32,000 bases of DNA from NCBI GenBank assembly GCA_041674405.1, contig JBAYVT010000005.1, forward strand, positions 90,001 to 122,000, read 5' to 3'. Shown piece after piece: positions 1-20,021 of the stretch; positions within the stretch are counted from its first letter, which is position 1; every line of letters begins with the position of its first letter. The DNA is from Patescibacteria group bacterium. GTDB taxonomy: Bacteria; Patescibacteriota; UBA1384; XYA2-FULL-43-10. Under the pieces are notes generated by a model, which worked only from the letters and a program-made list of their open reading frames with translations, was not told where the DNA came from and did not search any database. A program made the position numbers and the translations under genes.

Positions 1-1516
1 ACAAAATCTTCACACGGCTCGTAATCGGAGGATGCAAAGACAACGGCAATCTGATAATATCTCTCAAAATTCCATCAATTCTATATCTGACGCGCAGATC
101 CTTTTGTTCTGGTTCAATATGAATGTCAGATGCGCGCTCAAACAAAGCGAAATTTATTAAAGCAGCAACTATCTTGGGTGCCGAAGAATTCTTGATATTG
201 CTTTTTAGGCCCTCGACATCAACAATATCTCCTTTAAGATAGGCCCCGATGTTTTTTTCGCTTTCTTCCACGCTTTCATCAGTTTTTGGATTTTTTTCAA
301 GCTCTTCCGTTGCAATTTCGCTGATATCAGTCTTTGATTCGAGATCAGGATTATCACTTGGCTGCTCACCATTTTGCCCTGCAGTCTTATCTTCAACGCC
401 ATCGCCAGTTTTTGATTCAGTCTTTGTGGGTGATTTTATATCTTCCGGGGCAGTAATATTGCCAACCGCAGCTGTTTCTCCGCCTGGCTGAGCCCCAAAT
501 GGGGCAACGATTGTCTCTTTTTCATCCCCACTCTCTTCGCTGTCAATTCTAATTACTGGCGTTACCTGAGAAACGGGCTCCTTTTTTCCAAGAAAAGAGC
601 CAAACAAGCTCGAAAGTGTAATAATTTCATCACCAGATGATTGCTTTTTTTCAATAACTTTTTCTTTGGTTTTTTCTTCTTCCACCTCTACTTTGACAGA
701 ATTTTCTTTTTTATTCTCAAGCTTTTTCTTGTATGCCTCGATCGCATAGTCGATATCTTCGCGAGAAGTGGCAAAAATTTGAAAATTAATTTTGTTAGCA
801 TTCTCCAAAGATTTGATGGCCTTGTGCAAAGCAGTATCATCTGGGTTCTCTGCTGCCAGAGCGAATGAATTATCCGTTTTTTTGTAAAAAACAACTACCC
901 GATACTGCTCAATAAATGAAAGCGGAAGCTTGCCCAGATATTCCGACCTTATGTCCTGATTTCGCAAAAAGACCGTCGGATAACTTCCGGTAGACAATAA
1001 ATCCTCAAACTTTCCCTTTTGGTCGTATTGTTTTAACGCCTCCAAAAAATCTGATTTTGCGGTTATATATAAATCTAAATTCAAATGCCTATCTTCGATA
1101 ATTTTTTGAAGGCCCTTGTTGAAATTTAGAGACAATTCCGTGGGATTGGCAACAGCAAGCTGCAATGATCCCTCCTTAAGCCCAAATGGGATCACAGAAA
1201 ATTTTTCTGCAACTGATTTCGGTATAATACCAAAAACATCGTGTGGAATTTCAAAATTCTTTAGGCTGACATATGGGATTTTCAAAAGAATACTATACGC
1301 TTTGTTTATGGTGTCCGAACTGACAATACGATTTTTCAAAAGAAAATTTTCCACATCTCTATTGGTTCGGTATTTTTTCTTGAGTTTGGTTGCGTCAGGT
1401 GCGGTTAGTAATCCCTGCATTACAAACACATCCAAAACAGACTGGGTAATAGAATTATAATCCAATCCATTCAAAAAATAAGAGTTTTTTGAAACTGTTT
1501 GTGACATTGTATTCAT
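1..1516 (-). CDS. pilB: Type IV pilus / T2SS assembly ATPase, PilB/GspE family. N-terminal ~505 codons only; the 3' end runs off the left edge, so it is absent from the ORF track.
   Basis: My own translation from the ATG at 1516-1514 stays open down to position 2 (MNTMSQTVSKNSYFLNGL...). It shows two T2SSE_N/MshEN-like repeats (IPYVSLKNFEIPHDVFGIIPKSVAEKFSVIPFG..LAVANP and LPLSFIEQYRVVVF..ALAAENPDD). At the window edge is the GspE core motif APKIVAALINFALFERASDIHIEPEQKDLRVRYRIDGILRDI. The start lies 6 nt after the upstream stop. Confidence 0.85.
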   Translation of the reverse strand, partial: MNTMSQTVSKNSYFLNGLDYNSITQSVLDVFVMQGLLTAPDATKLKKKYRTNRDVENFLLKNRIVSSDTINKAYSILLKIPYVSLKNFEIPHDVFGIIPKSVAEKFSVIPFGLKEGSLQLAVANPTELSLNFNKGLQKIIEDRHLNLDLYITAKSDFLEALKQYDQKGKFEDLLSTGSYPTVFLRNQDIRSEYLGKLPLSFIEQYRVVVFYKKTDNSFALAAENPDDTALHKAIKSLENANKINFQIFATSREDIDYAIEAYKKKLENKKENSVKVEVEEEKTKEKVIEKKQSSGDEIITLSSLFGSFLGKKEPVSQVTPVIRIDSEESGDEKETIVAPFGAQPGGETAAVGNITAPEDIKSPTKTESKTGDGVEDKTAGQNGEQPSDNPDLESKTDISEIATEELEKNPKTDESVEESEKNIGAYLKGDIVDVEGLKSNIKNSSAPKIVAALINFALFERASDIHIEPEQKDLRVRYRIDGILRDIIRLPLSLHPPITSRVKIL

Positions 1517-1521
1517 TTCTC

Positions 1522-1776
1522 TTATTCCGGATTAGCAAATGGGTTTGCTTTGCCCATTTTTGTAGTTGGGTCAGGAAGCGGTATTCCGGCATTGTTCTCA
1601 CGACCCTGAACAAGCGTCTCAGCTTCATCCTTAACCCCGGAGATGTCAAGAGTAATATAAGATGCCGTATTTTGTACCGAGATGCTTGAATTATTTTTCC
1701 AGATCATGTAAAAACCAACGATAGCGATCGTGAGAAATATTAGGCTTAAAATTAAATTGAATGTTCTTTTCTTCAT
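1522..1776 (-). CDS. Small single-pass membrane protein in the pilus cluster (function unknown; PilP-like by position only).
   Basis: 84-aa ORF with an N-terminal TM segment (FNLILSLIFLTIAIVGFYMIW). It has a 4-nt ATGA overlap with the upstream pilO-like gene and lies directly upstream of pilB. Confidence 0.5.
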   Translation of the reverse strand: MKKRTFNLILSLIFLTIAIVGFYMIWKNNSSISVQNTASYITLDISGVKDEAETLVQGRENNAGIPLPDPTTKMGKANPFANPE

Positions 1777-2345
1777 TGTGTCTCCCCCGCACTAACACTT
1801 CCTCTGGTATAAACCTCCAGGGTATAAGATGCCGATATGATATTTTCTTCCGGAGAAGTCATTGATAGCGCCTTTATGCGCATAAATTTAATGCTTTTTT
1901 CGATCGTGTCGGTAAATGCGCTTATGTTTTCAAAAGAACCGGAAACTGAAAAACTTACATTCAATAGATTTCCTGCTGTTACAGTTTCCGCCCCCTCGCC
2001 CTCTGTGGTGGAGATTGCAGGAGCAATGTCTATGGATGGAACAGCCAATGAATTTTTTGTAGCCATTGCCTCAATTTCAGAAATTAAATTCGGCTCATCA
2101 TTGTCGGATGGAACCGCGATCAAAAGCTCATTAATGGTATCCGATATAGAAGATAAGCTGCTCTTTGCCTCTTCGATCGAAGCAATTTCATTTTTTGCAT
2201 CCGAGACTTCTGCCGATAATTTCTCTGCTTCAGCCTTGTTGTTAGAATACGATGGAAGAATAATCTTCCACGATATCAAGAAAACAATAATTGTAAGAAT
2301 TACTGCGATTGAATTTGAAGCCATTTTGCTGTTTGTTTGTTTCAT
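1773..2345 (-). CDS. pilO: PilO-like type IV pilus assembly protein.
   Basis: N-terminal TM (IAVILTIIVFLISW), then a coiled-coil segment (AEAEKLSAEVSDAKNEIASIEEAK), then a C-terminal alpha/beta domain with the PilN/PilO-type pattern (LLNVSFSVSGSFENISAFTDTIEKSIKFMRIKALSM). Sits in an operon with pilB. Confidence 0.6.
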   Translation of the reverse strand: MKQTNSKMASNSIAVILTIIVFLISWKIILPSYSNNKAEAEKLSAEVSDAKNEIASIEEAKSSLSSISDTINELLIAVPSDNDEPNLISEIEAMATKNSLAVPSIDIAPAISTTEGEGAETVTAGNLLNVSFSVSGSFENISAFTDTIEKSIKFMRIKALSMTSPEENIISASYTLEVYTRGSVSAGETQ

Positions 2346-2358
2346 GATAAATCCAATT

Positions 2359-3126
2359 TTATGGCGCTACTTCCGGAGTTATGTTTTCTGTGTTCACACT
2401 ATCTCCGTAACCATAGGTTGAGCTGCTATCAGTCCCGGAACTATCCGTTGTGACACTGCTTGATGTTGAAGCAGGTGTTGATTCGCTGGTTTCAGTTTCA
2501 GCATTTGATGACGTAGTAGTAGAAGAAGATGTGCTGCTCTCGGTTGTGACTTCCTTTGTCGTATCTAGCTTGAAGGAAACAGAAAATGTTACTTTTTCGT
2601 TTGGCGGCGCATCCTCTGCCGTCGACATGGAAACGCTCTTTAGCTGAAGATCAGAAACTTTGTCGTATGATTTAAGCGCAAGCATAAAATCTGCAACGGT
2701 GCGATATGATGCGGTAGCGCCATCTAGGCTAGCTGTTCCATCGGAAGTGAGAGCGATCGTTGAAATATGAACATCCTTCGTAAAATGCAAATACAAGTTA
2801 TCTAGAACCTTTTTCTTGCTTTCCTGCTGAGTGGAAACTTGAGATAGGATTGAAATTACATTTTTAAGTCCAGTAACGTCATTGATAACTTTTTGATTTT
2901 CCACTAAAGCTAGGGTTGCATCCGCGGATTTTTTTTCGCTTTGCTTTTCGGAAATTGTAGTCTTAAGCGATGCGTCCGAAAACCAGATAAAACCCAAAAA
3001 TAAAACCGCTACAACAAAAGATAACCAGACAATCAGAGACGAAAAATCCGTTTCTTTTCTGTCGGCAAATTCGACTATTTCTTTACCACTTTGGTTATCG
3101 TGTACACCCGGTTTTTCTTCCGGCAT
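2359..3126 (-). CDS. PilN/PilO-like bitopic pilus assembly protein with a Ser/Thr-rich C-terminal tail.
   Basis: TM (LIVWLSFVVAVLFLGFIWF), a coiled region, and a PilN-like domain (ISTIALTSDGTASLDGATASYRTVADFMLAL..VTFSVSFKL). The last ~70 aa are about half Ser/Thr. SD GGAGGGGAG lies before the ATG. Confidence 0.5.
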   Translation of the reverse strand: MPEEKPGVHDNQSGKEIVEFADRKETDFSSLIVWLSFVVAVLFLGFIWFSDASLKTTISEKQSEKKSADATLALVENQKVINDVTGLKNVISILSQVSTQQESKKKVLDNLYLHFTKDVHISTIALTSDGTASLDGATASYRTVADFMLALKSYDKVSDLQLKSVSMSTAEDAPPNEKVTFSVSFKLDTTKEVTTESSTSSSTTTSSNAETETSESTPASTSSSVTTDSSGTDSSSTYGYGDSVNTENITPEVAP

Positions 3127-3229
3127 CTCCCCTCCGAGGGCAATGTTATATCATCAAAGATAATTGTAACACAACTTTCTGTCTATACAAATTTTATATC
3201 ACATAAAATCTCAATGCAATACCTAAAAG

Positions 3230-4366
3230 TTATCTTTCGGACGCAACCGGCATATTGAAATACCTGAATCCGGGCGGCCAATTGCCCGAAAGATTATAAT
3301 CATATGCAAATCTGATATTTACAATATTAATACCTCGGCCTGATGAATCCAAAACAATAAAGTCTCTCGCAACATACGAACCGTTCATCGTTACATTTTG
3401 AGTAAAACCAGTGGTGTTTTGAATTCTGATAGCTCCCAGGGCAAACATCGCAGCCGTTATTTTGCTGTTGCTATAAAGGCGAACATTTCCAGTGCCATTA
3501 ACAATGATTCCGAGCGAATTTGACGGATTCTGAGAATCCTCAGGACTAATATTCACTCCATCTTGGATAGTCAAAGTGCCATTAATAATGATTGTTCCAC
3601 GCCCGCTATATGTAATCGATTGACCAAGGTTAACATTGCCGTTTACAACCCATATTTTCCCTTCGGGATATTTTTCAGTGTTATTTCCGCCTACTCCCCC
3701 GGTGTAAAAAGAGCTGTAATCATCCGCCTGCAGATGCCAACGCAGACCCCCGGCCAAATCTGCCGGAGCATTTATCACTTCTGCTTCTCCCGCAAGATCA
3801 TTTATCCGATTTGTATATGAAGATCTCTGGCTTTCAGCATAGGATGCTTGCGCCTCAGAATTTAGCGTGTAATTTCGGATATTCCAACTGGCGTTTCTGT
3901 TTGAGTTTAAATTCAAATTTTTACCATACACTTGAAAATTATTCAGAACATCTGCACTACTATAGATATCTCCCTGGACAGATAACACTGGATAAAAAAG
4001 CGTCGAAATTTCAAGCCCCGTTGAACCTCCAATTTTTGTGCGACTAACCATATTCCGAATCGATGAATTTGCAGGATCAAGGCGATAGCAATATGGGTTG
4101 GTCGTGATTTTATCCCAACAATATGCCGCGCCCGGAGAGACTAACATCGATTGATTAAACCCGAGTAGATAATTCTGGTCAAAATTAATTACTGCTTCGT
4201 TGCCGTTCATTCCGGAATAATAAACTTGGCCACTATCTTTTGTGACTGTTAAATTTCCAACCAAAACTTGCGGAAGCTGATATGATTCAGCAAAAGCATT
4301 TGCCGGTATAAGCGCAAATACCACTAATAACGATAGAAACAAATATATTCTAACTAATCTGGTCAT
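3230..4366 (-). CDS. Secreted protein with beta-helix-like C-terminal repeats (function unknown).
   Basis: Likely start is the internal MTRLVRIYLFLSLLVVFALIPANAFA/ES, a signal peptide with an AFA cleavage motif. The C-terminal half has regular G-x-I/V-x-I/V-N-G turns (GKIWVVNGNVNLG..GTIIINGTLTIQDG..LGIIVNGTGNVRLY). Confidence 0.6.
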   Translation of the reverse strand: MTRLVRIYLFLSLLVVFALIPANAFAESYQLPQVLVGNLTVTKDSGQVYYSGMNGNEAVINFDQNYLLGFNQSMLVSPGAAYCWDKITTNPYCYRLDPANSSIRNMVSRTKIGGSTGLEISTLFYPVLSVQGDIYSSADVLNNFQVYGKNLNLNSNRNASWNIRNYTLNSEAQASYAESQRSSYTNRINDLAGEAEVINAPADLAGGLRWHLQADDYSSFYTGGVGGNNTEKYPEGKIWVVNGNVNLGQSITYSGRGTIIINGTLTIQDGVNISPEDSQNPSNSLGIIVNGTGNVRLYSNSKITAAMFALGAIRIQNTTGFTQNVTMNGSYVARDFIVLDSSGRGINIVNIRFAYDYNLSGNWPPGFRYFNMPVASER

Positions 4367-4380
4367 GATCGCTCTGTTAA

Positions 4381-6933
4381 TTAGTATGTTCGAACCTGGC
4401 AATAATATGTGATTGGGGAAGTAAGTGGGTTCTGGCCATTATTCGCCCATTCTACAAAATCTCCAGAATTTGGGTCGGCGCTTGCAACAAATGTTCCGCC
4501 ATTTAAATAAGCATCAAACCCAAGGCTACTGCTCCCTGTTATATCCGACGGCTCGCATCTGTATCGGTAGGTATCACTTGGAATTCGCAAAAGTTCATCA
4601 TCTACCGTTGCAACGCCCGTCATATCGCCAATTTCAATGGACACTTGAATTACATCCCCTAGCTGCAGCGCATAGGGATTAAAAGCAGCCCCAGACCCCT
4701 GCCTATTTATCGGAACCAGTTTTTTGCGAATATTAAATTGCGGCCCACCTGTTACAACTATTAATCTGCCATCTTGCCCATCATAAACTTTATCCCCATC
4801 GCTATTATTGATTGACCAAGCCCCATTCTTGCTGCCCCTGGCTCCACTCACTCTCGAAGCTGTTCTAATAGCACTTGAATCAAGATTGGAGTTTGTATAT
4901 TGAATAAATATGTAACCCCCGCCTCCCCCAGACGATCCATCAATGTTATACAAAGGCACAGAAATCAAATTACGGTTGCCAGTGATTGGAATCTCTTGGG
5001 CAGATGCTGAAAATACTCCGGACAAACCAACGCCCACATTCAAAGTTGAGACCCTAATATTAATACTTCCCCCAGCTCCTCCGGCATAACCAGAGTCATT
5101 GTCATAAGGCTGCTGCATAGAACTGGTCCATCTTCCCTCAGCAAAAATTGCTCTTGAAGATTGAATGGCTAAAACTGATGAATTTATTTCTAATAAACCA
5201 CCACCGTCACCACCACCATTCCAGCTTCCAGTATATCCGCCCCCAGAACCAAGACTACTTGGATTATCAGCTGGTCCCCCGTATGTGTTATTTGGCCAAT
5301 CTGGCGGTTTGCGCCACGTATTACCTCCACAATTTAACCCACTATCACCGGCCCCACCTTCTCCTGCATGCGACCCAGCACTAGCAATTGCGGTACACCC
5401 ACCATTCATTGAAATACCTCCGCCTGGCGCTCCATCAAACGAAACGCTACCTCCCCTAAGGCGAGTTGAACCATAATTCGGTTGAGTCCCAACACCCCAA
5501 GCACCCGCATACCCAGATCCGGTTGCATCAATTTTTCCACCGCTTCGTATTAAAATTGTGTTGGCCACATTGAGATGTAGGCCCGCTGGATTGTTATTAT
5601 AATTATCCGCATATGCTTGATCCAACGCATTCCAATTAATAGTTCCCCCATCATAATGCGAGCCTAAAATATTGTAGCTTGGAATCGCGCCACCTTTGTC
5701 ATCCCAAGTACCAAGTGGATCGGCTACTGGGGTAGAGTTTTGCCCCCATCCTTGCCACTCAAATTTGAAGGTATCATCGTTGTGGTATGCATCCCATTTG
5801 CCATAAGACTCGCCGGTTCCTCCATTGGAACCAACAGGACTATCGAGCATTCTTAAATCTTGCCTTAAATTCATGTTACGCTTGTGTCCAGCCAGAACCG
5901 CATTAGAAAAGCCAGATCCCATATTAAGGTCATATTGTGGAATAGTCTTTTCGGTATAGGCAGAAATATAATAGTCGAAATCCATTCTTCTCACCAAAGA
6001 TGTATTTACAGTTCCATCTTCATTGGAGCCATAGAAATTACTCAGAGGCATAGCTACAGCAGCCACAGCAACGCCATATGGGGACGAGGGATTGAGCTCG
6101 ATATAATTCAACCAGAGTTGTGATGATCCACTGACTTCACCAAAATAAATTTTAACCGGCACATAAGTAGTGGACCCAGTTCCGGTCATTAAGGTTCTTG
6201 TGCACGCATCAAGGCCATAGTATCGATTCGCTGGTGATCCATTGCCAGCATTATCGCCATATATTGGCCAACTAGCCGATAATGAGTCACTATAAATAGT
6301 ATGCCAGTAAGTAGTATCAACTGTTGTAGCGGGTGCGCTACACGAAGCGTCGGTTCCGACTTCGATTGCCATCGCATCATCAAGTTTTCCTCCGGCCGCT
6401 TGAGGAAATATAAGATTTGTACCTGTTAATTTTATGAAACCTGTCCAAACCACTCCCCAATAATCAGATGAATATGTGGGGCGATTCAAATGCCCCGTTC
6501 TATCTGCATATGCTTGGGTTAATGTACCATTATTTGTAACTGTCAAGTTATTTAAATTTACCGATCCCTCTGCCATCAATGTTGCGAGTCCAGATGTACT
6601 GCCTACCGTAAGGTTTGTGTTTGAATCCACTGCAAAACCGGTATCAACATTGTAGAATGTGCTTAAAAATCGCTGGTCGAGCTGAGCATCATTCATTGCC
6701 GGCAAAAAAGGAGATTGGTATGTATAAATATGTCCGTCAGTTTTCAATAGGTACGAACCAGTTTGAATTGTAACGTCATTACCGGTTTGCACTATCGCTG
6801 CCCGCGTCTTGCTCGCGCCGTTCATCATATTGGTCACAATGGCAAGCCCAGAAAATATCACAAGCAAAATAAGCGCCACATACGTGAAAATTCGCCTGCG
6901 ATTTATACGATCAATTATCGAGATCTCTCTCAT
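4381..6933 (-). CDS. Large (~850 aa) N-terminally anchored glycine-rich surface protein with a PA14-like module. Candidate adhesin.
   Basis: The track start at 6945 is TTG; the ATG at 6933 follows GAGGGG. N-terminal TM is IFTYVALILLVIFSGLAIV. A PA14-like pattern spans about 6094-6474 (DYWGVVWTGFIKLTGTNLIF..KLDDAMAIEV..YVPVKIYFGEVSGSSQLWLNY). Gly-rich repeats span about 4741-5583 (GSGYAGAWG, GAPGGGISMNGG, GSGGGYTGSWNGGGDGGG, GYAGGAGGSINI, GSSGGGGGYIFI). There is no pilin G/FTLxE motif. Confidence 0.65.
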   Translation of the reverse strand: MREISIIDRINRRRIFTYVALILLVIFSGLAIVTNMMNGASKTRAAIVQTGNDVTIQTGSYLLKTDGHIYTYQSPFLPAMNDAQLDQRFLSTFYNVDTGFAVDSNTNLTVGSTSGLATLMAEGSVNLNNLTVTNNGTLTQAYADRTGHLNRPTYSSDYWGVVWTGFIKLTGTNLIFPQAAGGKLDDAMAIEVGTDASCSAPATTVDTTYWHTIYSDSLSASWPIYGDNAGNGSPANRYYGLDACTRTLMTGTGSTTYVPVKIYFGEVSGSSQLWLNYIELNPSSPYGVAVAAVAMPLSNFYGSNEDGTVNTSLVRRMDFDYYISAYTEKTIPQYDLNMGSGFSNAVLAGHKRNMNLRQDLRMLDSPVGSNGGTGESYGKWDAYHNDDTFKFEWQGWGQNSTPVADPLGTWDDKGGAIPSYNILGSHYDGGTINWNALDQAYADNYNNNPAGLHLNVANTILIRSGGKIDATGSGYAGAWGVGTQPNYGSTRLRGGSVSFDGAPGGGISMNGGCTAIASAGSHAGEGGAGDSGLNCGGNTWRKPPDWPNNTYGGPADNPSSLGSGGGYTGSWNGGGDGGGLLEINSSVLAIQSSRAIFAEGRWTSSMQQPYDNDSGYAGGAGGSINIRVSTLNVGVGLSGVFSASAQEIPITGNRNLISVPLYNIDGSSGGGGGYIFIQYTNSNLDSSAIRTASRVSGARGSKNGAWSINNSDGDKVYDGQDGRLIVVTGGPQFNIRKKLVPINRQGSGAAFNPYALQLGDVIQVSIEIGDMTGVATVDDELLRIPSDTYRYRCEPSDITGSSSLGFDAYLNGGTFVASADPNSGDFVEWANNGQNPLTSPITYYCQVRTY

Positions 6934-7000
6934 ATCCCCTCGCAATAAATATATCTTATGAAATTTTGATTACAACGATATTATAAACACTACGGAAAAA

Positions 7001-7681
7001 CTATACAACTCTTTTTAATTTCTTCTTTGCCTGTTCTATTTGAATTATTGCCTTGACGATGTCCTCATACATTTTATATCGGCTTTTTATCCCGGCCCAG
7101 ATATCATCATTCTTTTCTTCCTTAATTACCTGGGTTAAACCGTGCAAAACCACAATCTCACGCCGCTCCTTTGGAACAGCCGCCGTAATCAATGCATCAA
7201 CGCCGAATCTGGAATGTTTAATTTTTGCAAGTGGAGGCAAATTCTTCCGCCAAATCACACGTTGGCCGGAGATTGCAGGAAATGCCCTATTGGCGATTTT
7301 TGTGGTTGTAAGCTTATCAATATTGAATACACCAAGCGAAAGATCAGCCGTTTTCATAAATGCCACCGGTCCCAAAAGCTCCAAAATATGCCCCTCTGTT
7401 AAACCAATCAAGTCGGCATCCAAAAACAACAAAAGCGGATGGTGCGAATGTTTAATGCCATTATATAAAGCCATTCCCTTGCCGCCATTTTGTTTGTTTT
7501 TAAGAAGGCGTACATTTGAATATTTTTTAACAATTTCGCATGTTTTATCCTTTGAGCAATCATCCACAACAATTTTTTCATCAATAAAATCAAGCGGAGC
7601 GACTACGTCGAGAACTTTGCGAATATTTTTTGCTTCGTTGTATGCACAGATAATCAGTGAAATTTTTTGTTCAAATTTCAT
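7001..7681 (-). CDS. Family 2 glycosyltransferase.
   Basis: GT2 motifs: SLIICAYNEAKNI, VDDCSKDKT, and the DxD in LLFLDADL. 226 aa. Confidence 0.8.
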   Translation of the reverse strand: MKFEQKISLIICAYNEAKNIRKVLDVVAPLDFIDEKIVVDDCSKDKTCEIVKKYSNVRLLKNKQNGGKGMALYNGIKHSHHPLLLFLDADLIGLTEGHILELLGPVAFMKTADLSLGVFNIDKLTTTKIANRAFPAISGQRVIWRKNLPPLAKIKHSRFGVDALITAAVPKERREIVVLHGLTQVIKEEKNDDIWAGIKSRYKMYEDIVKAIIQIEQAKKKLKRVV

Positions 7682-7690
7682 CGCAGACTA

Positions 7691-7699
7691 ATTATACCA
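7691..7699 (-). promoter_or_regulatory. Extended -10 element TGGTATAAT, 9 nt upstream of the GT2 ATG.
   Basis: The reverse complement of attatacca is TGGTATAAT. Only tagtctgcg separates it from the ATG at 7681, and no SD is present. Confidence 0.4.
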
Positions 7700-7739
7700 A
7701 ACTATAAAATAAAAATCAGTTTTTGTCGTATAAACGCAG

Positions 7740-7794
7740 CAACTCCCACAGACTGGCTGCGGGAGTTGGAGATCTGCCGTTCCCCGGAGGGAAC
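7740..7794 (-). terminator. Two GC-rich hairpins after the island-1 lipoprotein stop codon.
   Basis: On the minus strand: GTTCCC-TCCG-GGGAAC (7779-7794), directly after the TAA at 7796-7798. Next comes CAACTCCCGCAG-CCAGT-CTGTGGGAGTTG (7740-7768, one mismatch), followed by a weak U-tract. Confidence 0.55.
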
Positions 7795-7795
7795 A

Positions 7796-8317
7796 TTACG
7801 GCGCGTAGCTGGGGGGAGTGAGATGGCCAGCAATGGTCGTCCCGTTGTTCGTAGTGACGATGTCACCCTCCGCGGCGAAGTTGGCGGCGAGGCACGCCGC
7901 CGCGCCGTCTACCGAGATGTGGTTGCCGTCCATGGCGACCACCTCCATCCACCAGGAGCCCTCCTCGTACTGCATCAGAAGATAGGGCTGGGTGCCCTGG
8001 CCCAGGTCCAGACTCCGAAGAGCCAGAGACAGGATCTCCTGGCTAGGCCGGATAGGGACCGACCCGACCTCGACATCGGCAGTGTTGTAGACCTTGATCT
8101 GGCCGTTGCCGGTCCCGTCGCGGGACATGGTCAAGTACGTGATGCCATCGCCGCTGTCGAGGCGAGCGATGTTGCCCAAGCCGTCTGTGGCCCACTTCAC
8201 ACCCGCCGTCGGGAAGGCCGGGTCCACGCTTCCGCCTCCGCCACCACCACAACCAGTCGAGATGAGGATCGCCACCAACATGGCGACCAGTCCGACCAAC
8301 AACATCCATTTGCGCAT
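7796..8317 (-). CDS. GC-rich putative lipoprotein (island 1), function unknown.
   Basis: Start chosen at MRKWMLLVGLVAMLVAILISTGC, 5 nt after the SD AGGTGA. The Cys is followed by a GGGGGGS linker. Most codons end in G/C. The lipobox is imperfect (S at -3). Confidence 0.7.
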   Translation of the reverse strand: MRKWMLLVGLVAMLVAILISTGCGGGGGGSVDPAFPTAGVKWATDGLGNIARLDSGDGITYLTMSRDGTGNGQIKVYNTADVEVGSVPIRPSQEILSLALRSLDLGQGTQPYLLMQYEEGSWWMEVVAMDGNHISVDGAAACLAANFAAEGDIVTTNNGTTIAGHLTPPSYAP

Positions 8318-8378
8318 GTTCATCACCTGTTCCAGGAGTTCGTACACCATGTGGCGGCATACGTATTACAGCGCCATC

Positions 8379-8407
8379 AAACTAGCATATATTCAGCAAT
8401 TTGTCAA
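8379..8407 (-). promoter_or_regulatory. Sigma70-like promoter for the island-1 lipoprotein gene.
   Basis: Minus strand reads TTGACA (8402-8407), a 17-nt spacer, then TAGTTT (8379-8384), set in AT-rich DNA. Confidence 0.45.
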
Positions 8408-8471
8408 TAATAGATAATTATTTTCTGCCGTTATGCTACCGGCCACAAAAAATTCTTCAGCCAAGCCAATC

Positions 8472-8505
8472 AAAAAATTTCCAACCATCTGGCTGGAAAT
8501 TTTTT
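8472..8505. terminator. 12-bp AT-rich hairpin with A- and T-tracts on both sides (bidirectional terminator-like).
   Basis: AAAAAATTTCCA-accatctggc-TGGAAATTTTTT. Confidence 0.4.
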
Positions 8506-8583
8506 GTCAGACTTGCATACCTTTGTATATCCGAAACACAATGGATAAGCATTGTGAAGTTGTTTTTAAAGCTACTTTATCCT

Positions 8584-8620
8584 AATAAAAATAATCAGCT
8601 CTAAACTGATTATTTTTTGC
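8584..8620 (-). terminator. Hairpin terminator downstream of rdgB. Member of a repeated intergenic hairpin family.
   Basis: AATAATCAG-ctctaaa-CTGATTATT, flanked by an A-run and a T-run. About 80% identical to 10316-10350. Confidence 0.55.
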
Positions 8621-8685
8621 AGAAAACATTGGAAGATACTGGAGATTGTCTAGCGGTAAAACATTTTTAACGACAATACGGTACT

Positions 8686-9303
8686 TTAAAGACTAAAGTA
8701 CTTGTCAAGTTCCTTGATCGCTGACCTAAAAGCTTTTCCCCTATGATTTATTTCTATTAAATCATTTGGGTCGAACTCAGCATTTGTTTTTTTATAATTA
8801 GCATTTTTTGATAAAAATATGGGTGCGTATCCAAAACTTTTTGTTCCTTTTGGCTCGAGTGCGATGCGACCATCCCACCTTCCTTCGGTTGTCTTAACAA
8901 ATTTGGTTGAAGGATCATATATAGCAACATTGCAGTTATAATGACAACCCCGCATACTCATCGGAATCTCATTCATCTTTGACAGAACTTTTCTGTTATT
9001 TGCCTCGTCTGTTCCTTCTTCCGAATAACGGGACGAGCATATTCCCGGTTCTCCACCAAGAGCATCAATGCAAATTCCACTATCATCAGCAAGCGTAGTC
9101 ATTTGCAAATTGTCGCCAATTACAATTGCTTTAATTAGCGCATTTCCTTCAAAACTTTCTGCATTTTCCTGAACCTTAAGATCAGCAATCTTGTCTTTAT
9201 AATCATAAAGGAATTTCAAGTCATAATTTGAGTTCTTAAAAATCTCCCGAATTTCCCTTGCCTTACCTTGATTCGCAGTGGCGATTAAAATTGTTTTTTT
9301 CAT
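8686..9303 (-). CDS. rdgB: Non-canonical purine NTP pyrophosphatase (RdgB/HAM1 family ITPase).
   Basis: Ham1 motifs: ILIATANQGKAREI, ENAESFEGNALIKA, DDSGICIDALGGEPGICSSRY, SFGYAPIF. Confidence 0.85.
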   Translation of the reverse strand: MKKTILIATANQGKAREIREIFKNSNYDLKFLYDYKDKIADLKVQENAESFEGNALIKAIVIGDNLQMTTLADDSGICIDALGGEPGICSSRYSEEGTDEANNRKVLSKMNEIPMSMRGCHYNCNVAIYDPSTKFVKTTEGRWDGRIALEPKGTKSFGYAPIFLSKNANYKKTNAEFDPNDLIEINHRGKAFRSAIKELDKYFSL

Positions 9304-9375
9304 AAATTATTATTTAGGATATTGTTGGCTAATATAGTATCAGAAACACAAGTTCAATTCCAGCCATTTTTTAAT

Positions 9376-9462
9376 GACAAAATATCCAATCTGTAGGTGG
9401 ATATCTTTGGCAATGTAAATATGCAAAGTTAGAACTTGTTATAATGCCGCATAATCAAAACG
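9376..9462. repeat. Diverged copy of the terminator hairpin plus the last codons of the P-loop kinase gene (partner at 11016-11100).
   Basis: By-eye alignment gives roughly two thirds identity. Shared blocks include ACAAAA, GTGGATAT, TTTGGC and the 11-nt block TTAGAACTTGT. The hairpin ATATCCA/TGGATAT is at 9382-9404. Confidence 0.5.
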
Positions 9463-9511
9463 GCCGCCCCCGAAGAGGCGACCGTCTGATAATACACCGG
9501 AAACGCTCCGG
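9456..9511 (-). terminator. Strong intrinsic terminator after the island-2 lipoprotein gene.
   Basis: On the minus strand: CCGGA-GCGTT-TCCGG (9497-9511). Then ACGGTCGCCTC-TTCG-GGGGGCGGCCGT (9460-9485), an 11-bp stem including two G-U pairs with a UUCG loop, followed by TTTTG. Confidence 0.7.
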
Positions 9512-9520
9512 CGCGACTCA

Positions 9521-10195
9521 CTAGCGAAGGCTGAGGTAGCCTTGCTTCAGTTGCTCGTGAGAGATGGTGATGGTGGCGTACAGCACCCGGTTCTCGTCGA
9601 TCAGGCTTCCGGGATTCTCGAAGTTCCAGGACGGCAGCCAGAGCAAGTTGTCCACGTAGTACTTGAAGCGAACCACAGGGGGGCCTTGCTCGCTGGTCAG
9701 GACCTTCACCCTCTCCATCGGAAGAGAGCTAACGAAGGTTGGCACATCTCCCCCGCTTTGGTTTTGGGGAAGCGACCAGCAGAAGACATAGCTGACTCCT
9801 GGCCGAGACTTTCCCTCGACGCTGCCCTCGACGTAGCCTCCGAGGAAATTGCCTCCCCCGCTTAGGCTTCCACTGAGGTCAGACTTCTGGCCTTTGCTCA
9901 CCAGCGGGTTGAAGACCAGTGGATGGGGCCCGAGCAGATGGTATCTCTCCAACTGCCCAATGTTCCACTTCACCCATCCAGTATCTCTGGCAGACTTCTC
10001 TCTGGCCCGCTTGATGGCAGAGTCATAGAGTTCGAAGTTACCTATCCGTGGGTTAAAGCTTCGTTCCCAGAAGTAGTCGGGCGTGTCGAGCCTGACTTTC
10101 AGCCAAGACTTGTCCGCGGGAGTCAGCCCCTTGGAGCAGCCTACAACTGACACACCTACCAACAGAACCAACAACACGACAGCGATCTTTCGCAT
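9521..10195 (-). CDS. GC-rich putative lipoprotein (island 2), function unknown.
   Basis: MRKIAVVLLVLLVGVSVVGC has a canonical lipobox V-V-G-C. SD GGAAGGGA is upstream and the stop is TAG. Codons are G/C-biased at the third position. 224 aa. Confidence 0.75.
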   Translation of the reverse strand: MRKIAVVLLVLLVGVSVVGCSKGLTPADKSWLKVRLDTPDYFWERSFNPRIGNFELYDSAIKRAREKSARDTGWVKWNIGQLERYHLLGPHPLVFNPLVSKGQKSDLSGSLSGGGNFLGGYVEGSVEGKSRPGVSYVFCWSLPQNQSGGDVPTFVSSLPMERVKVLTSEQGPPVVRFKYYVDNLLWLPSWNFENPGSLIDENRVLYATITISHEQLKQGYLSLR

Positions 10196-10248
10196 CTTGA
10201 TCGTCCCTTCCTGGATATCGGTCTAGATTTGTGTTTCAGAGCTTAAAC

Positions 10249-10277
10249 ACAATAACACAATATTACAAATATGTCAA
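10249..10277 (-). promoter_or_regulatory. Sigma70-like promoter for the island-2 lipoprotein gene.
   Basis: Minus strand reads TTGACA (10272-10277), a 17-nt spacer, then TATTGT (10249-10254). The sequence around the -35 resembles the island-1 promoter (ATTGACA-A/T-ATT). Confidence 0.45.
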
Positions 10278-10315
10278 TTATTAACTTCATTGAAGTTATA
10301 TAAATATAGAACTCA

Positions 10316-10350
10316 ACAAAAAATAACCAGCACTAAACTGATTATTTATT
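10316..10350 (-). terminator. Hairpin terminator downstream of the Nudix gene (same family as 8584-8620).
   Basis: AATAACCAG-cactaaa-CTGATTATT with flanking A and T runs. Confidence 0.55.
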
Positions 10351-10400
10351 GGCAGGATATAGCAACTGAAATCAGAAACTTTTATTTGAGTGCAAATGTT

Positions 10401-10937
10401 CTATATTAGTTTCTTTTCTTTTAAATATCTTAAACCAACGAGACCCGTTGCCATGTCTGTCAGCTCTCCGGAAAGCAAGTGTTTCTCAAATTCATTTAAA
10501 CTTAGTAATACTACTTCGACAAACTCAGTTTTTTCATTTTCTGGTTCTTTCACTTGTTTGCAATTTAGTGCTATAAAATTATGAAGTTCGGTATCCGAAT
10601 AAGCACACTTATAAGCCTTATTAACAAGGTAAAATTCTCCTGTATAACCAGTTTCTTCCAGTAACTCTCTTTTTATCCCATCAACCGGATATTCATTATT
10701 ATCGATGCCTCCACCAGGTAGCTCAAGCAATATTTTCTCGCACCCAGGTCTAAATTGTCTCGCTAGAATTATTTTTTTATCTTCAGTAATCGCCAGCACT
10801 GCAGCAACAGGGCCCTCTTTCTTTATATGATAATTCTCAACTTCTCCATCAGGCATGCGAAAAGTTTTTTTGATAATTTTTCTAAAACCAACCTTAATCG
10901 GCTCTTCCTCTTTTATTTTTTTCCACCTTATACTCAT
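10401..10937 (-). CDS. NUDIX hydrolase (ADP-ribose pyrophosphatase-like).
   Basis: Nudix box GGGIDNNEYPVDGIKRELLEETGY. 178 aa. Confidence 0.85.
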   Translation of the reverse strand: MSIRWKKIKEEEPIKVGFRKIIKKTFRMPDGEVENYHIKKEGPVAAVLAITEDKKIILARQFRPGCEKILLELPGGGIDNNEYPVDGIKRELLEETGYTGEFYLVNKAYKCAYSDTELHNFIALNCKQVKEPENEKTEFVEVVLLSLNEFEKHLLSGELTDMATGLVGLRYLKEKKLI

Positions 10938-11015
10938 TATTCTTTCTCCTTTTTATCATTTACCAATATCACTCTAGCAAATTCACGCCAATTGTTCTAA
11001 CAATGTATTACCTAT

Positions 11016-11050
11016 ACAAAAATAACCACTCATAGAGTGGATATTTTTTG
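11016..11050 (-). terminator. Hairpin terminator downstream of the P-loop kinase gene.
   Basis: AATAACCACT-catag-AGTGGATATT followed by TTTTTTG, with an A-run upstream. Confidence 0.55.
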
Positions 11051-11992: not shown

Positions 11993-12066
11993 TGGCAGGG
12001 GCTAGAGGAGTCGAACCTCTGACTAGGGTTTTGGAGACCCCTATTATACCGTTTAACTAAGCCCCT
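11993..12066 (-). tRNA. trnW: tRNA-Trp (anticodon CCA), CCA encoded.
   Basis: AGGGGCTTAGTTAAACGGTATAATAGGGGTCTCCAAAACCCTAGTCAGAGGTTCGACTCCTCTAGCCCCTGCCA. The cloverleaf was checked by hand: acceptor AGGGGCT/AGCCCCT, anticodon loop CTCCAAA, T-arm AGAGG-TTCGACT-CCTCT. Confidence 0.9.
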
Positions 12067-17849: not shown

Positions 17850-20021
17850 ATGTCTAAGAATCCTGTTTGGATTAGGCCGGCATTTTTGGCCACAAGAGAA
17901 AAACTTGAGGATAGGTTTGTTTACGTTGGAAAAATCGCTAAAGAAGGGCAACCTTCCGTTTTTATGTTCTATTTGATAGAGATTCTGTCCCCCTGGCATC
18001 CATCTACGAAAGTTGAAGAAGTCATCACGAAAGCTTTGGCTAACGAGTATTCTCGAAAAGATGCGTACACACTTGAAGATTTTGAAGAAACCCTAAAAGT
18101 GGTCAATGAAAAACTCGGCGCCCTTTCACAAGATGGAGACAATGACTGGATCGGAAACTTAAACTCAATTGTCGGTCTCGTGGAAGCAGGTAATCTTCAC
18201 ATTTCTGTTTGCGGAAACATTCTAGGTTATCTCCTGCGAAAAGGAAAAATATCGTCTGTGACAGAGGGTTTATCCGCAGAAGAAGATCACCCTTTGAAAA
18301 CCTTTGTGAACATAACATCCGGAGCAATGGGAGAGAATGACAGAGTAATCATCGGCAATATTAATTTTTTTGATGTACTTTCAATTGATCGCCTCAAAAA
18401 ACTGACATGCGAAACTAGCGCAAAAGAGGCGATGTTTGAAATACATCGCACCCTTCGCCGCTCCAAGATCGATAAAACTAGTTGTATTATTTTAGATTGT
18501 GTCGAAGCCGAATTTAAAGAAACAGACAAAGAAAAAGAGCTGCCTGAAATGTTTTTTCTAGACCAATCTTCCGATACCGGGTTCTCAAAATTCATGAAAA
18601 AGGCTTCTCCGGTCGCCAAATCTGGAGCAAACTCAGCCAAAAAGGGATTGGTTAAATTTTTTCACTTTTCAAAAAAGGCTGCGGCAGGCGCCCACAAAAA
18701 ATGGAAGGAGAGTTATGGGCCCAAAACTAAGGAAATATTTGCAAAAGGCAAGAATAGCGCCGGTGCCGGAATTGCAAAAATTTCAAGCAGAATAAGAGAC
18801 AATCAACAAGTTAAATATATGGGCGTTAAAGTAAGGCCTTATTCCAAACGGCCCAAGGGAACATTATCTAGAATTATGGGTTCTGTCTTGAGTGCAATTT
18901 ATATGATCTCTGAAAAGAAAAACCGCCGATATTTATACGTTGGTCTCGCAATCATCCTTGTACTTATCGGCTATATGAAAATTCGGGCAAATAATGCAAA
19001 CCGTGTGGCATTAAATACAGAAAGAGAAATTACCGAGAGTTATACCCAAGCTGTTGATTTATTCAATCAAGCAAAAGATGATCTTTCGCTTGGCAAACCC
19101 AATGCCAAAGATGAGTTCGCATCGGCACTTGATTTAGCAATCAAGGCCCAAGGAAGCGAAGCCACGAAAAACGAGGCGATCGTTCTTGCAAACGAAATTA
19201 CCGATAAACTCGATGGGCTTATCTCTGCTACCCGATTTAGAAATTTAAGTCCCCTATTTTCAGTCAATGGCAATGTTGCCCATAGCGCTTTAGTCGGTAC
19301 AACCATATATTCCATTACCGACACTGGCCGAATTTATGCGACAGATACCAAAGACCAATCACCAAAATTAGTGGCTTCTGTTCCATCAGATGCGGGAAAT
19401 ATAATTTCTAGTACCTTTGCTGATTCCCAGAATATACTTTTCTTTTTAACGGATAAGGACAAAATTCTTTCCTTGGACATCGATAATAATACCATTGGCT
19501 CTCCATCTCTTGCTTCAGGCGCCTCCTGGGAAACATCGGCGGCAATCGGTGCATATGTTTCAAATCTTTATTTGTTGGATGCAGAGAGTGGCACAATATG
19601 GAAGCATATCGAAAGCAACAATGCTTTTGGAAAAGGCTCTTCTTACGCCCCAACCAAAGATATTGACCTCAAGGGGGCAATCGATATCACAATTGATGGT
19701 AACATTTATATCCTAAAATCTGATTCAAGCATTGCAAAATTTGTTAAAGGTTCATATGACAGCTCTTTTTCAGTAAAAGCTTTGCCCTCGCCTTTTGATA
19801 AGATTGAAAAACCCGCAGGTATTTTTACTGATTCAGATACTAACTACATCTATGTTCTAGACAAAGGACAAAACAGGATTATCCGATTTGATAAAACAGG
19901 CACTTTTGTAAATCAATATTTCTTCGATGGTGCAACAATAGATCAGTTTTTTATAAATCCACGAATCCAAAAAATGTGGGTTTTCTCAGGCAATAGTGTT
20001 TATGAGATAAATGTTCAATAG
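17850..20021 (+). CDS. Bitopic membrane protein. N-terminal PP2C-fold-like domain lacking obvious catalytic Asp motifs; C-terminal NHL/beta-propeller-like repeats.
   Basis: Extended -10 TGCTAAAAT lies upstream. IVGLVEAGNLHISVCGNILGYLLRKGKISSVTEG resembles a PP2C strand pair. Central TM is YLYVGLAIILVLIGY. The C-terminus has repeated motifs such as IYVLDKGQNRIIRFDKTGTFVNQYF. Confidence 0.55.
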   Translation: MSKNPVWIRPAFLATREKLEDRFVYVGKIAKEGQPSVFMFYLIEILSPWHPSTKVEEVITKALANEYSRKDAYTLEDFEETLKVVNEKLGALSQDGDNDWIGNLNSIVGLVEAGNLHISVCGNILGYLLRKGKISSVTEGLSAEEDHPLKTFVNITSGAMGENDRVIIGNINFFDVLSIDRLKKLTCETSAKEAMFEIHRTLRRSKIDKTSCIILDCVEAEFKETDKEKELPEMFFLDQSSDTGFSKFMKKASPVAKSGANSAKKGLVKFFHFSKKAAAGAHKKWKESYGPKTKEIFAKGKNSAGAGIAKISSRIRDNQQVKYMGVKVRPYSKRPKGTLSRIMGSVLSAIYMISEKKNRRYLYVGLAIILVLIGYMKIRANNANRVALNTEREITESYTQAVDLFNQAKDDLSLGKPNAKDEFASALDLAIKAQGSEATKNEAIVLANEITDKLDGLISATRFRNLSPLFSVNGNVAHSALVGTTIYSITDTGRIYATDTKDQSPKLVASVPSDAGNIISSTFADSQNILFFLTDKDKILSLDIDNNTIGSPSLASGASWETSAAIGAYVSNLYLLDAESGTIWKHIESNNAFGKGSSYAPTKDIDLKGAIDITIDGNIYILKSDSSIAKFVKGSYDSSFSVKALPSPFDKIEKPAGIFTDSDTNYIYVLDKGQNRIIRFDKTGTFVNQYFFDGATIDQFFINPRIQKMWVFSGNSVYEINVQ

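Follow-up and report, generated by a model that had tools for sequence, protein, structure and literature searches.

How does one GC-rich gene come to stand among the housekeeping genes of an AT-rich chromosome? The question is raised by a 32,000-nucleotide stretch of a contig from a Patescibacteria group bacterium (referred to here as the window), in which a sequence-only reading had picked out two GC-rich single-gene islands, each encoding a lipoprotein. The second of these, island 2, is the subject of this analysis. The most likely answer, with a probability of about one-half, is that the island 2 cassette reached this genome by lateral transfer from a GC-richer Patescibacterium.

Composition, setting and boundaries of island 2

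The coding sequence of island 2 occupies positions 9521-10195 of the window, on the minus strand, and specifies a 224-amino-acid prolipoprotein. Its GC content is 0.566 overall and 0.556, 0.418 and 0.724 at the first, second and third codon positions (GC1, GC2 and GC3), respectively; the 20 other genes of the window have GC3 values of 0.27-0.38 (mean, 0.345; standard deviation, 0.030), which places island 2 at z = 12.7. Taken as a 675-bp window, the gene lies 4.8 standard deviations above the background GC, and the nearest rival among windows of this size, the sole one to approach it, is a tRNA cluster at ~12.4-13.0 kb (0.519). Elsewhere in the 32 kb, only that cluster and island 1 (7730-8350) are GC elevated. 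The GC content rises at ~9440-9460 and falls at ~10210-10230, and therefore the GC-rich segment extends from the region of the SD sequence to the end of the terminator. Much of this had been anticipated from the sequence alone: the reading frame at 9521-10195, a hand count of 34 G+C in the 60 positions 9601-9660 (exact on recount), a discrete GC-rich single-gene island (borne out by the GC and GC3 contrast with the neighboring genes), and a GC content below that of island 1 (0.566 versus 0.638), which had been taken as a hint of a separate acquisition or a different donor.

Codon usage, which the same reading had proposed to compare with that of the housekeeping genes of the window, is shifted across the board, with all synonymous families moved toward G/C-ending codons. 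The codon tables show AAG, GAG, CTG, GTG and NNC codons to be strongly elevated; for example, the shares in island 2 and in the host genes are 0.85 and 0.26 for AAG, 0.82 and 0.33 for GAG, 0.89 and 0.18 for TTC, and 0.41 and 0.08 for CTG. Relative to the host, both base composition and codon usage are atypical. The amino acids follow the same trend: GARP/FYMINK is 1.10 for island 2 and ~0.5-0.75 for most neighboring genes, an 850-amino-acid surface protein (1.17) being the exception. Amino acid composition as the sole cause of the high GC was considered and ruled out by the GC3 of 0.724. An Rfam search of the window matched tRNAs elsewhere in it and no other RNA.

The gene is recorded at NCBI as 'hypothetical protein WC080_04135 [Patescibacteria group bacterium]', on a 395,669-bp MEGAHIT contig. 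It sits between genes for a NUDIX protein and Ham1/RdgB, on the same strand as both, in a neighborhood that also includes a GT2 glycosyltransferase, the 850-amino-acid surface protein, pilM/N/O/B, L33, tRNAs, ArgRS, TyrRS, PBP1A, RadA and RecJ. Such surroundings belong to the core chromosome of the host, an AT-rich, ultra-small member of the Patescibacteria (CPR) represented by a MAG. No integrase or transposase Pfam domains were detected in the neighboring genes, and neither the window nor L002 contains an integrase; the nearest tRNA lies at 11993, so that none is adjacent, and a search for direct repeats flanking island 2 found none.

Because the source is a metagenome-assembled contig and the change in GC is abrupt, an assembly chimera, or a contaminant joined into an AT-rich contig, has to be weighed before any biological origin. 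This explanation is hardly credible and, in effect, is refuted. Over positions 1-11043, the window is matched at 100% identity by a Logan assembly of SRR6484325; over 7315-9800, it is matched at 99.96% by a JGI contig from another metagenome, 3300037067, so that the MEGAHIT, Logan and JGI contigs agree at 99.96-100% across the junctions. An exact look-up of the Ham1 protein returned only three assemblies, all of which bear the island; with the same junctions in all three, island 2 is not a chimera. Furthermore, the borders fall at functional signals (promoter and SD sequence upstream, terminator downstream) that lie on the strand of the neighboring genes, and the island 1 arrangement was found again in two further samples.

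These signals match those described in the sequence-only reading. A sigma-70-type promoter, TTGACA-17-TATTGT with an extended -10 TG (10249-10277, minus strand), agrees with the consensus at 10 of 12 positions and is the top-scoring promoter-like site within 7000-11000, an interval in which such sites as a class are not enriched (8 versus 7.3 expected). Promoters of the same layout precede the homologous genes at loci L001 and L030. A putative 5' UTR (10196-10242, minus strand), counted from an equally putative transcription start, contains the GA-rich SD sequence GGAAGGGA at 10204-10211 (minus strand), 8 nt ahead of the ATG; the L001 homolog has GAAGGGAG in the equivalent position. Downstream of the gene, RNA folding yields a first GC-rich hairpin with an 8-bp stem (9494-9514, minus strand), followed by an intrinsic terminator with an 11-bp stem, a UUCG tetraloop and UUUUG (core, 9457-9485; extended stem, 9454-9490; minus strand). 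The latter lies 36 nt past the stop codon and has the makeup of a Rho-independent terminator, although a simple terminator scan missed it. Together, the two hairpins reach -37.5 kcal/mol (z = -4.7), a stability equaled by 0 of 200 shuffled sequences, in line with the strong GC terminator that had been claimed. Approximately 9454-10318 (minus strand) would thus constitute a self-contained, one-gene transcription unit between the NUDIX and Ham1/RdgB genes, with the UUCG-loop terminator presumably insulating Ham1.

The upstream limit of this unit adjoins an AT-rich, 33-nt hairpin, AAAAATAAYCAGCNCTAAACTGATTATTT (10319-10351, minus strand), with a 12-bp stem and a U-run, located 50 nt past the NUDIX stop codon (-12.4 kcal/mol; z = -3.1). 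This hairpin is probably the NUDIX terminator. A second copy, 91% identical, lies at 8587-8619 (minus strand), upstream of island 1; the window contains exactly these two copies, where chance would give 0. In both cases, the hairpin lies between the stop codon of the preceding gene (NUDIX for island 2, Ham1 for island 1) and the promoter of the island, and the two copies most plausibly terminate the NUDIX and Ham1 transcripts. Terminator function leaves both the near-identity of the copies and their exclusive pairing with the two islands unaccounted for.

A predicted surface lipoprotein from a small, scattered family

The protein N terminus, MRKIAVVLLVLLVGVSVVGC, fits a PROSITE-type lipobox regular expression, as the claim of a canonical VVGC lipobox required. 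Under the definition applied (a basic n-region, an uncharged h-region, and then [LVI][ASTVI][GAS]-C), the product has a basic n-region (MRK), a hydrophobic core of 15 residues, and V-V-G-C with the cysteine at position 20, whose codon is at 10136-10138; the signal peptide comprises residues 1-19. A clear signal peptide ending in cysteine is also present in five of seven aligned homologs, the other two being P0006, which has none, and P0005, the N terminus of which is irregular. No lgt or lsp gene is visible within the 32 kb of the 395,669-bp contig covered by the window. The N-terminal features suggest that the island 2 product is a surface-anchored lipoprotein. After export by Sec, addition of diacylglyceryl to Cys20 by Lgt and cleavage by LspA, it would remain anchored in the cell membrane, facing outward, and it might function in the envelope or where the epibiont and its host are in contact.

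The mature part had been described as rich in Trp, Tyr and Gly and as belonging to no recognizable family. The former holds only moderately (W, 3.4%; Y, 4.4%; G, 9.8%). The latter is supported by every curated profile search: no Pfam match was obtained for the protein or for any of the eight family members, and none was obtained in NCBIfam, PHROGs or PADLOC. There is also no similarity between the products of the two islands, as had been stated. The structure prediction suggested in the sequence-only reading was carried out with AlphaFold, yielding models of the full-length protein (pLDDT 74) and of its mature part (pLDDT 73). The predicted fold is alpha+beta, with an N-terminal beta-hairpin, one long helix and a six-stranded sheet; a conserved Gly/Ser-rich loop (residues ~103-131) appears flexible or disordered in the model. 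Foldseek comparisons against the PDB (run twice) and BFVD returned nothing at E <= 0.001, so the predicted fold is without a detectable known relative. An apparent match to the IgG-Fc CH2 domain in a PDB profile search was weak (best E = 1.3e-3; the rest, ~0.2-0.9) and was judged to be due to chance.

Homologs are exceedingly few. A search of 5.8 billion clustered proteins gave two hits, the protein itself and one sequence of 48% identity, and an exhaustive HMMER search of 1.84 billion representatives gave eight at E <= 1e-3, to which a profile search added none. The named members come from Patescibacteria group bacteria, Gribaldobacteria and Berkelbacteria, all CPR. No match to the family alignment was found in a JGI metagenome scan, and tblastn against phages and plasmids and a scan of IMG/VR detected no relatives. 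Conservation spans the whole length of the protein, including the motifs DxPDYF, HPLVFxP, FCW, LPxxxV, P-[TV]-[IV]-RF-K-[YF] and a C-terminal YATIxIS, and the loop motif GSxSG...GxxSGxxxGKS. The closest homolog, the 48%-identical sequence, is on a 1.1-kb contig with a GC content of ~47%, and its gene differs from that of island 2 with pN of 0.36 and pS of 0.79, indicating a real protein-coding gene under constraint (purifying selection).

The family is patchily distributed, and the genomic settings of the homologs all differ: after greA, beside HicAB, between flavodoxin and ComFC-pilM, and before divIC. Small upstream ORFs that overlap some of the homologs were considered as a partner gene and dismissed, being mutually unrelated. 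Type IV pilus (T4P)/competence genes recur near some members, with pilMNO/pilB five genes from the window gene and ComFC-pilM adjoining the distant member P0007; such a neighborhood was seen in only two of the four informative contexts, so that a connection with T4P or competence is no more than a lead.

Composition varies across the family as well. The difference in GC3 between the gene and its neighbors is +0.39 in the window, and +0.17, +0.13, ~0 and down to -0.2 elsewhere. Codon and protein composition follow that of the local genome: homologs in AT-rich contexts (L004, L007 and L035) have a host-like composition, those in contexts of ~47-50% GC (L001 and L030) are GC-rich, somewhat above their neighbors, and that at L033 is GC-poorer than its neighbors. 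Likewise, GARP/FYMINK values at L001 and L030 resemble that of island 2, and those in AT-rich contexts are 0.48-0.61. Altogether, this looks like a very rare accessory gene moving among Patescibacteria of differing GC content.

Patescibacteria spend their lives attached to other microbes by means of surface proteins that are almost uncharacterized. The island 2 product, a putative lipoprotein of a new, CPR-restricted family with an unmatched predicted fold, apparently strongly promoted and laterally mobile, is a concrete candidate for an envelope or host-interface factor.

Proposed transfer from a GC-richer relative or a possibly maintained GC-rich state

The family is tiny, confined to CPR-type genomes and variable in placement, and the island 2 gene carries a GC-rich signature, which together make uptake from a GC-richer Patescibacterium the likeliest origin. 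The combined shift in codons and amino acids points to evolution in a GC-richer genome, unlike the effect of translational selection; the coding sequence would bear the mutational signature of a genome of ~50-60% GC. Because all homologs are in CPR-type contexts, with the best at 48% identity, the donor would have been another Patescibacterium rather than a member of a distant high-GC phylum. CPR bacteria possess com/T4P genes for DNA uptake, transformation occurs naturally in Saccharibacteria (PMC10633639), and CPR lineages span a wide range of GC content (PMC7427843). The cassette may accordingly have been taken up and then recombined into the spacer between the NUDIX and Ham1 genes.

The foreign origin that had been proposed for island 2 thus fits the codon shift and the GARP/FYMINK of 1.10, but a donor was not found: no lineage was identified among the relatives, the closest homolog being 48% identical. 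Nor was a relative with an empty site found. GTDB relatives with a 58-65% identical Ham1 have neither island and also lack the NUDIX-Ham1 synteny, a JGI scan with Ham1 for closer relatives recovered distant Ham1 genes only, and the exact Ham1 look-up yielded no empty site. The source GC implied for island 2 is ~62% from GC3 and ~47% from GC1, according to regressions of genome GC that are reportedly those of Muto-Osawa and Lawrence-Ochman. A GC3-based estimate above the GC1-based one is the opposite of partial amelioration and therefore implies that the transfer was very recent or that the GC content is maintained.

The latter possibility is brought to the fore by island 1. This cassette (7730-8619, minus strand) has the same layout as island 2, with a lipoprotein gene at 7796-8317 (minus strand; GC, 0.638; GC3, 0.82), a TTGACA promoter near 8370-8400 (minus strand), and GC-rich double-hairpin terminators at 7735-7795 (minus strand). 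Its family in the database has only two members and no known donor. The homolog is found in two other samples (L010 and L011, from SRR30681657/8) and is ~53-56% identical; at L010 it occupies the same position upstream of the GT2 gene, with an alignable promoter and terminator. The GT2 protein of L010 is ~74-75% identical at the amino acid level, with synonymous sites saturated (pS of 0.85), and the island 1 genes have a pS of 0.62, about saturation for a GC3 of ~0.8. Nevertheless, both island 1 copies have GC3 values of 0.75-0.82 in genomes with GC3 of 0.35-0.46, which is not what a single old transfer followed by neutral decay predicts. The sequence-only reading had named homologs confined to close relatives with a matching high-GC gene, without donor-like hits, as evidence against its view; this is exactly the pattern of island 1, and it makes recent HGT alone a less convincing account of the phenomenon as a whole. 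Long-term maintenance of GC may thus apply to island 2 as well.

Accordingly, island 2 might be a long-standing resident whose GC-rich state is actively maintained and is not the fading trace of a recent transfer, an alternative that is the serious rival to transfer, although it is considered unlikely. Its candidate causes are selection on DNA or mRNA, GC-biased gene conversion at a recombination-prone surface-protein locus, and repeated allele replacement. The island 1 ortholog at L010, with its conserved position and homologous promoter and terminator, and the persistence of high GC3 in both copies despite the divergence of the GT2 and island 1 genes all speak for maintenance, as do the lack of an amelioration signature in island 2, the copy of the 33-nt hairpin ahead of both islands, and the fact that the 32 kb contain just two lipobox ORFs and just two GC3 outliers, which coincide. 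However, island 2 itself has no ortholog by which it could be dated, and its family is elsewhere mostly host-like in GC, with one member GC-poorer, so that high GC is not a family trait. The general codon shift, which includes AAG and GAG, and the amino acid usage resemble a mutational equilibrium reached elsewhere rather than translational selection, and the island 2 mRNA is not unusually structured (z = -1.4). GC-biased gene conversion is not known to have effects of such size in bacteria. More doubtful still is the broader claim, prompted by the syntenic ortholog of island 1, that neither cassette is a fading relic of transfer and that both have been kept rich in GC through a long evolution within an AT-rich CPR lineage.

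Transfer could also have come from outside the CPR, for instance, from the GC-rich bacterial host of the epibiont, in which case the product might be an orphan immunity or adhesion lipoprotein. The high GC3 and GC-type amino acid usage would suit such a donor, and both islands encode predicted exported lipoproteins, which bacteria competing at the cell surface often exchange. Horizontal transfer from divergent sources has been reported in Saccharibacteria (PMC7427843), which counts in the same direction. Conversely, the exhaustive searches found no homolog outside CPR-type contigs and no relatives among phages, plasmids or IMG/VR, with no PADLOC or PHROG hit, and the layout of promoter and SD sequence is common to the CPR homologs. 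A non-CPR donor is therefore highly improbable, and a GC-richer Patescibacterium remains the preferred source.

The pair of islands offers a test of whether CPR bacteria commonly exchange genes across GC contents and whether some genes resist amelioration. If the GC-rich state is maintained, compositional deviation would be called into question as a routine clock for dating transfers. Long-term retention would imply either nucleotide selection or biased conversion specific to the cassettes or a continuing supply of genes from some GC-rich partner not yet sampled, for example, the host; either way, both lipoproteins would be marked as host-interface determinants.

Comparison with known systems

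Integron cassettes offer a superficial parallel. Like them, the islands are small, single-ORF units in one orientation, accompanied by a repeated imperfect palindrome, the 33-nt hairpin. However, each island brings a promoter of its own and a GC terminator unrelated to that of the other, the housekeeping gene Ham1 separates the two islands, and there is no intI or other recombinase within ~10 kb and no integrase in the window or L002. Furthermore, the 33-nt hairpin is short, and termination of the preceding gene accounts for it better. An integron gene cassette, defined as a promoterless ORF with attC and with intI/attI nearby, was considered for island 2 and rejected.

Horizontal transfer into Saccharibacteria/CPR genomes by natural transformation offers another comparison: the genome that would have received the island is that of a CPR bacterium, a T4P locus lies within a few genes of the island, and genes for DNA uptake are conserved throughout the CPR (PMC10633639; PMC7427843). 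CPR lineages differ in GC, and CPR-to-CPR transfer could create the GC contrast. Transformation has been demonstrated only in Saccharibacteria, and as the route into the present genome it is a proposal. With respect to the product, the MRK n-region, 15-residue core, V-V-G-C and Cys20 are those of bacterial lipoproteins processed by Lgt and LspA (PS51257 type), whereas the mature domain matches no Pfam or NCBIfam lipoprotein family and no PDB fold.

A further comparison is with compositional islands that arrive by horizontal transfer and bear an ORFan accessory gene, as treated in the amelioration framework of Lawrence and Ochman. Acquired DNA is more often AT-rich, whereas island 2 is GC-rich in an AT-rich genome; it is also only one gene long and lacks the integrase, tRNA and direct-repeat hallmarks and an identified donor, and its sibling, island 1, shows no amelioration despite saturated divergence. 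Yet the sharp departure in GC, GC3 and codon usage, the patchy family with its varying context, and the insertion between housekeeping genes are all features that island 2 shares with acquired islands of this kind.

GC-rich lipoprotein genes of the window

The only two lipobox ORFs in the window (positions 1-32000) are also its only two GC3 (third-codon-position GC) outliers, namely, island 2 (positions 9521-10195, minus strand), located between the NUDIX and Ham1/RdgB genes, and island 1 (7796-8317, minus strand), which encodes an unrelated lipoprotein. A syntenic ortholog of island 1 is present upstream of the GT2 glycosyltransferase gene in a diverged relative (L010:348-869), with the GT2 proteins showing 75% amino acid identity and synonymous sites being saturated. 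Both copies are strongly GC-rich within AT-rich genomes (GC3 of 0.82 for island 1 and 0.75 for the ortholog), and the island 1 compositional island appears not to have undergone amelioration.

Noncoding sequences and translation starts

An AT-rich, 33-nt perfect-stem hairpin occurs in only two copies in the 32 kb (8587-8619 and 10319-10351; 91% identity), each placed after the stop codon of the upstream gene and before an island promoter. This repeat might act as a terminator, serve as a target site, or mark the end of a cassette. The 365-nt noncoding spacer between Ham1 and island 1 (8320-8686), which had zero matches in Rfam, also contains an inverted repeat with 26-nt arms (8462-8515) and a further hairpin (8537-8556). 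Clear purine-rich Shine-Dalgarno sequences precede both island genes and NUDIX, whereas GT2 and Ham1 apparently lack this motif (7682-7730 and 9304-9360, respectively), and their leaders, 3' of TATAAT-like boxes in the same segments, appear to be very short.

Island 2 family members and the pilus neighborhood

Among the island 2 homologs, P0005, from the Berkelbacteria cluster (L035:122-700), contains an in-frame TGA at a conserved Trp, which one source renders as Trp, and a TAA ahead of the conserved C-terminal segment; this copy has probably either become a pseudogene or been split. Directly downstream of another homolog lies a 65-aa ORF (L007:2614-2811, minus strand) with a GC content of 0.56 and a GC3 of 0.64, compared with a GC content of 0.44 for the locus.

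Two large proteins encoded in the window, of 850 aa (4381-6945, minus strand; directly upstream of the pilus genes) and 723 aa (17850-20021, plus strand), contain no Pfam domains; the former has a counterpart with 36% identity beside GT2 in L010. The island 2 gene itself is five genes away from pilM/N/O/B (1773-4402), and the neighbors of a distant family member, P0007 (L030:2954-3424), are a pilM-pilB cluster and a ComFC-like gene. The family may be tied to a pilus/competence locus, or this proximity may be coincidental.
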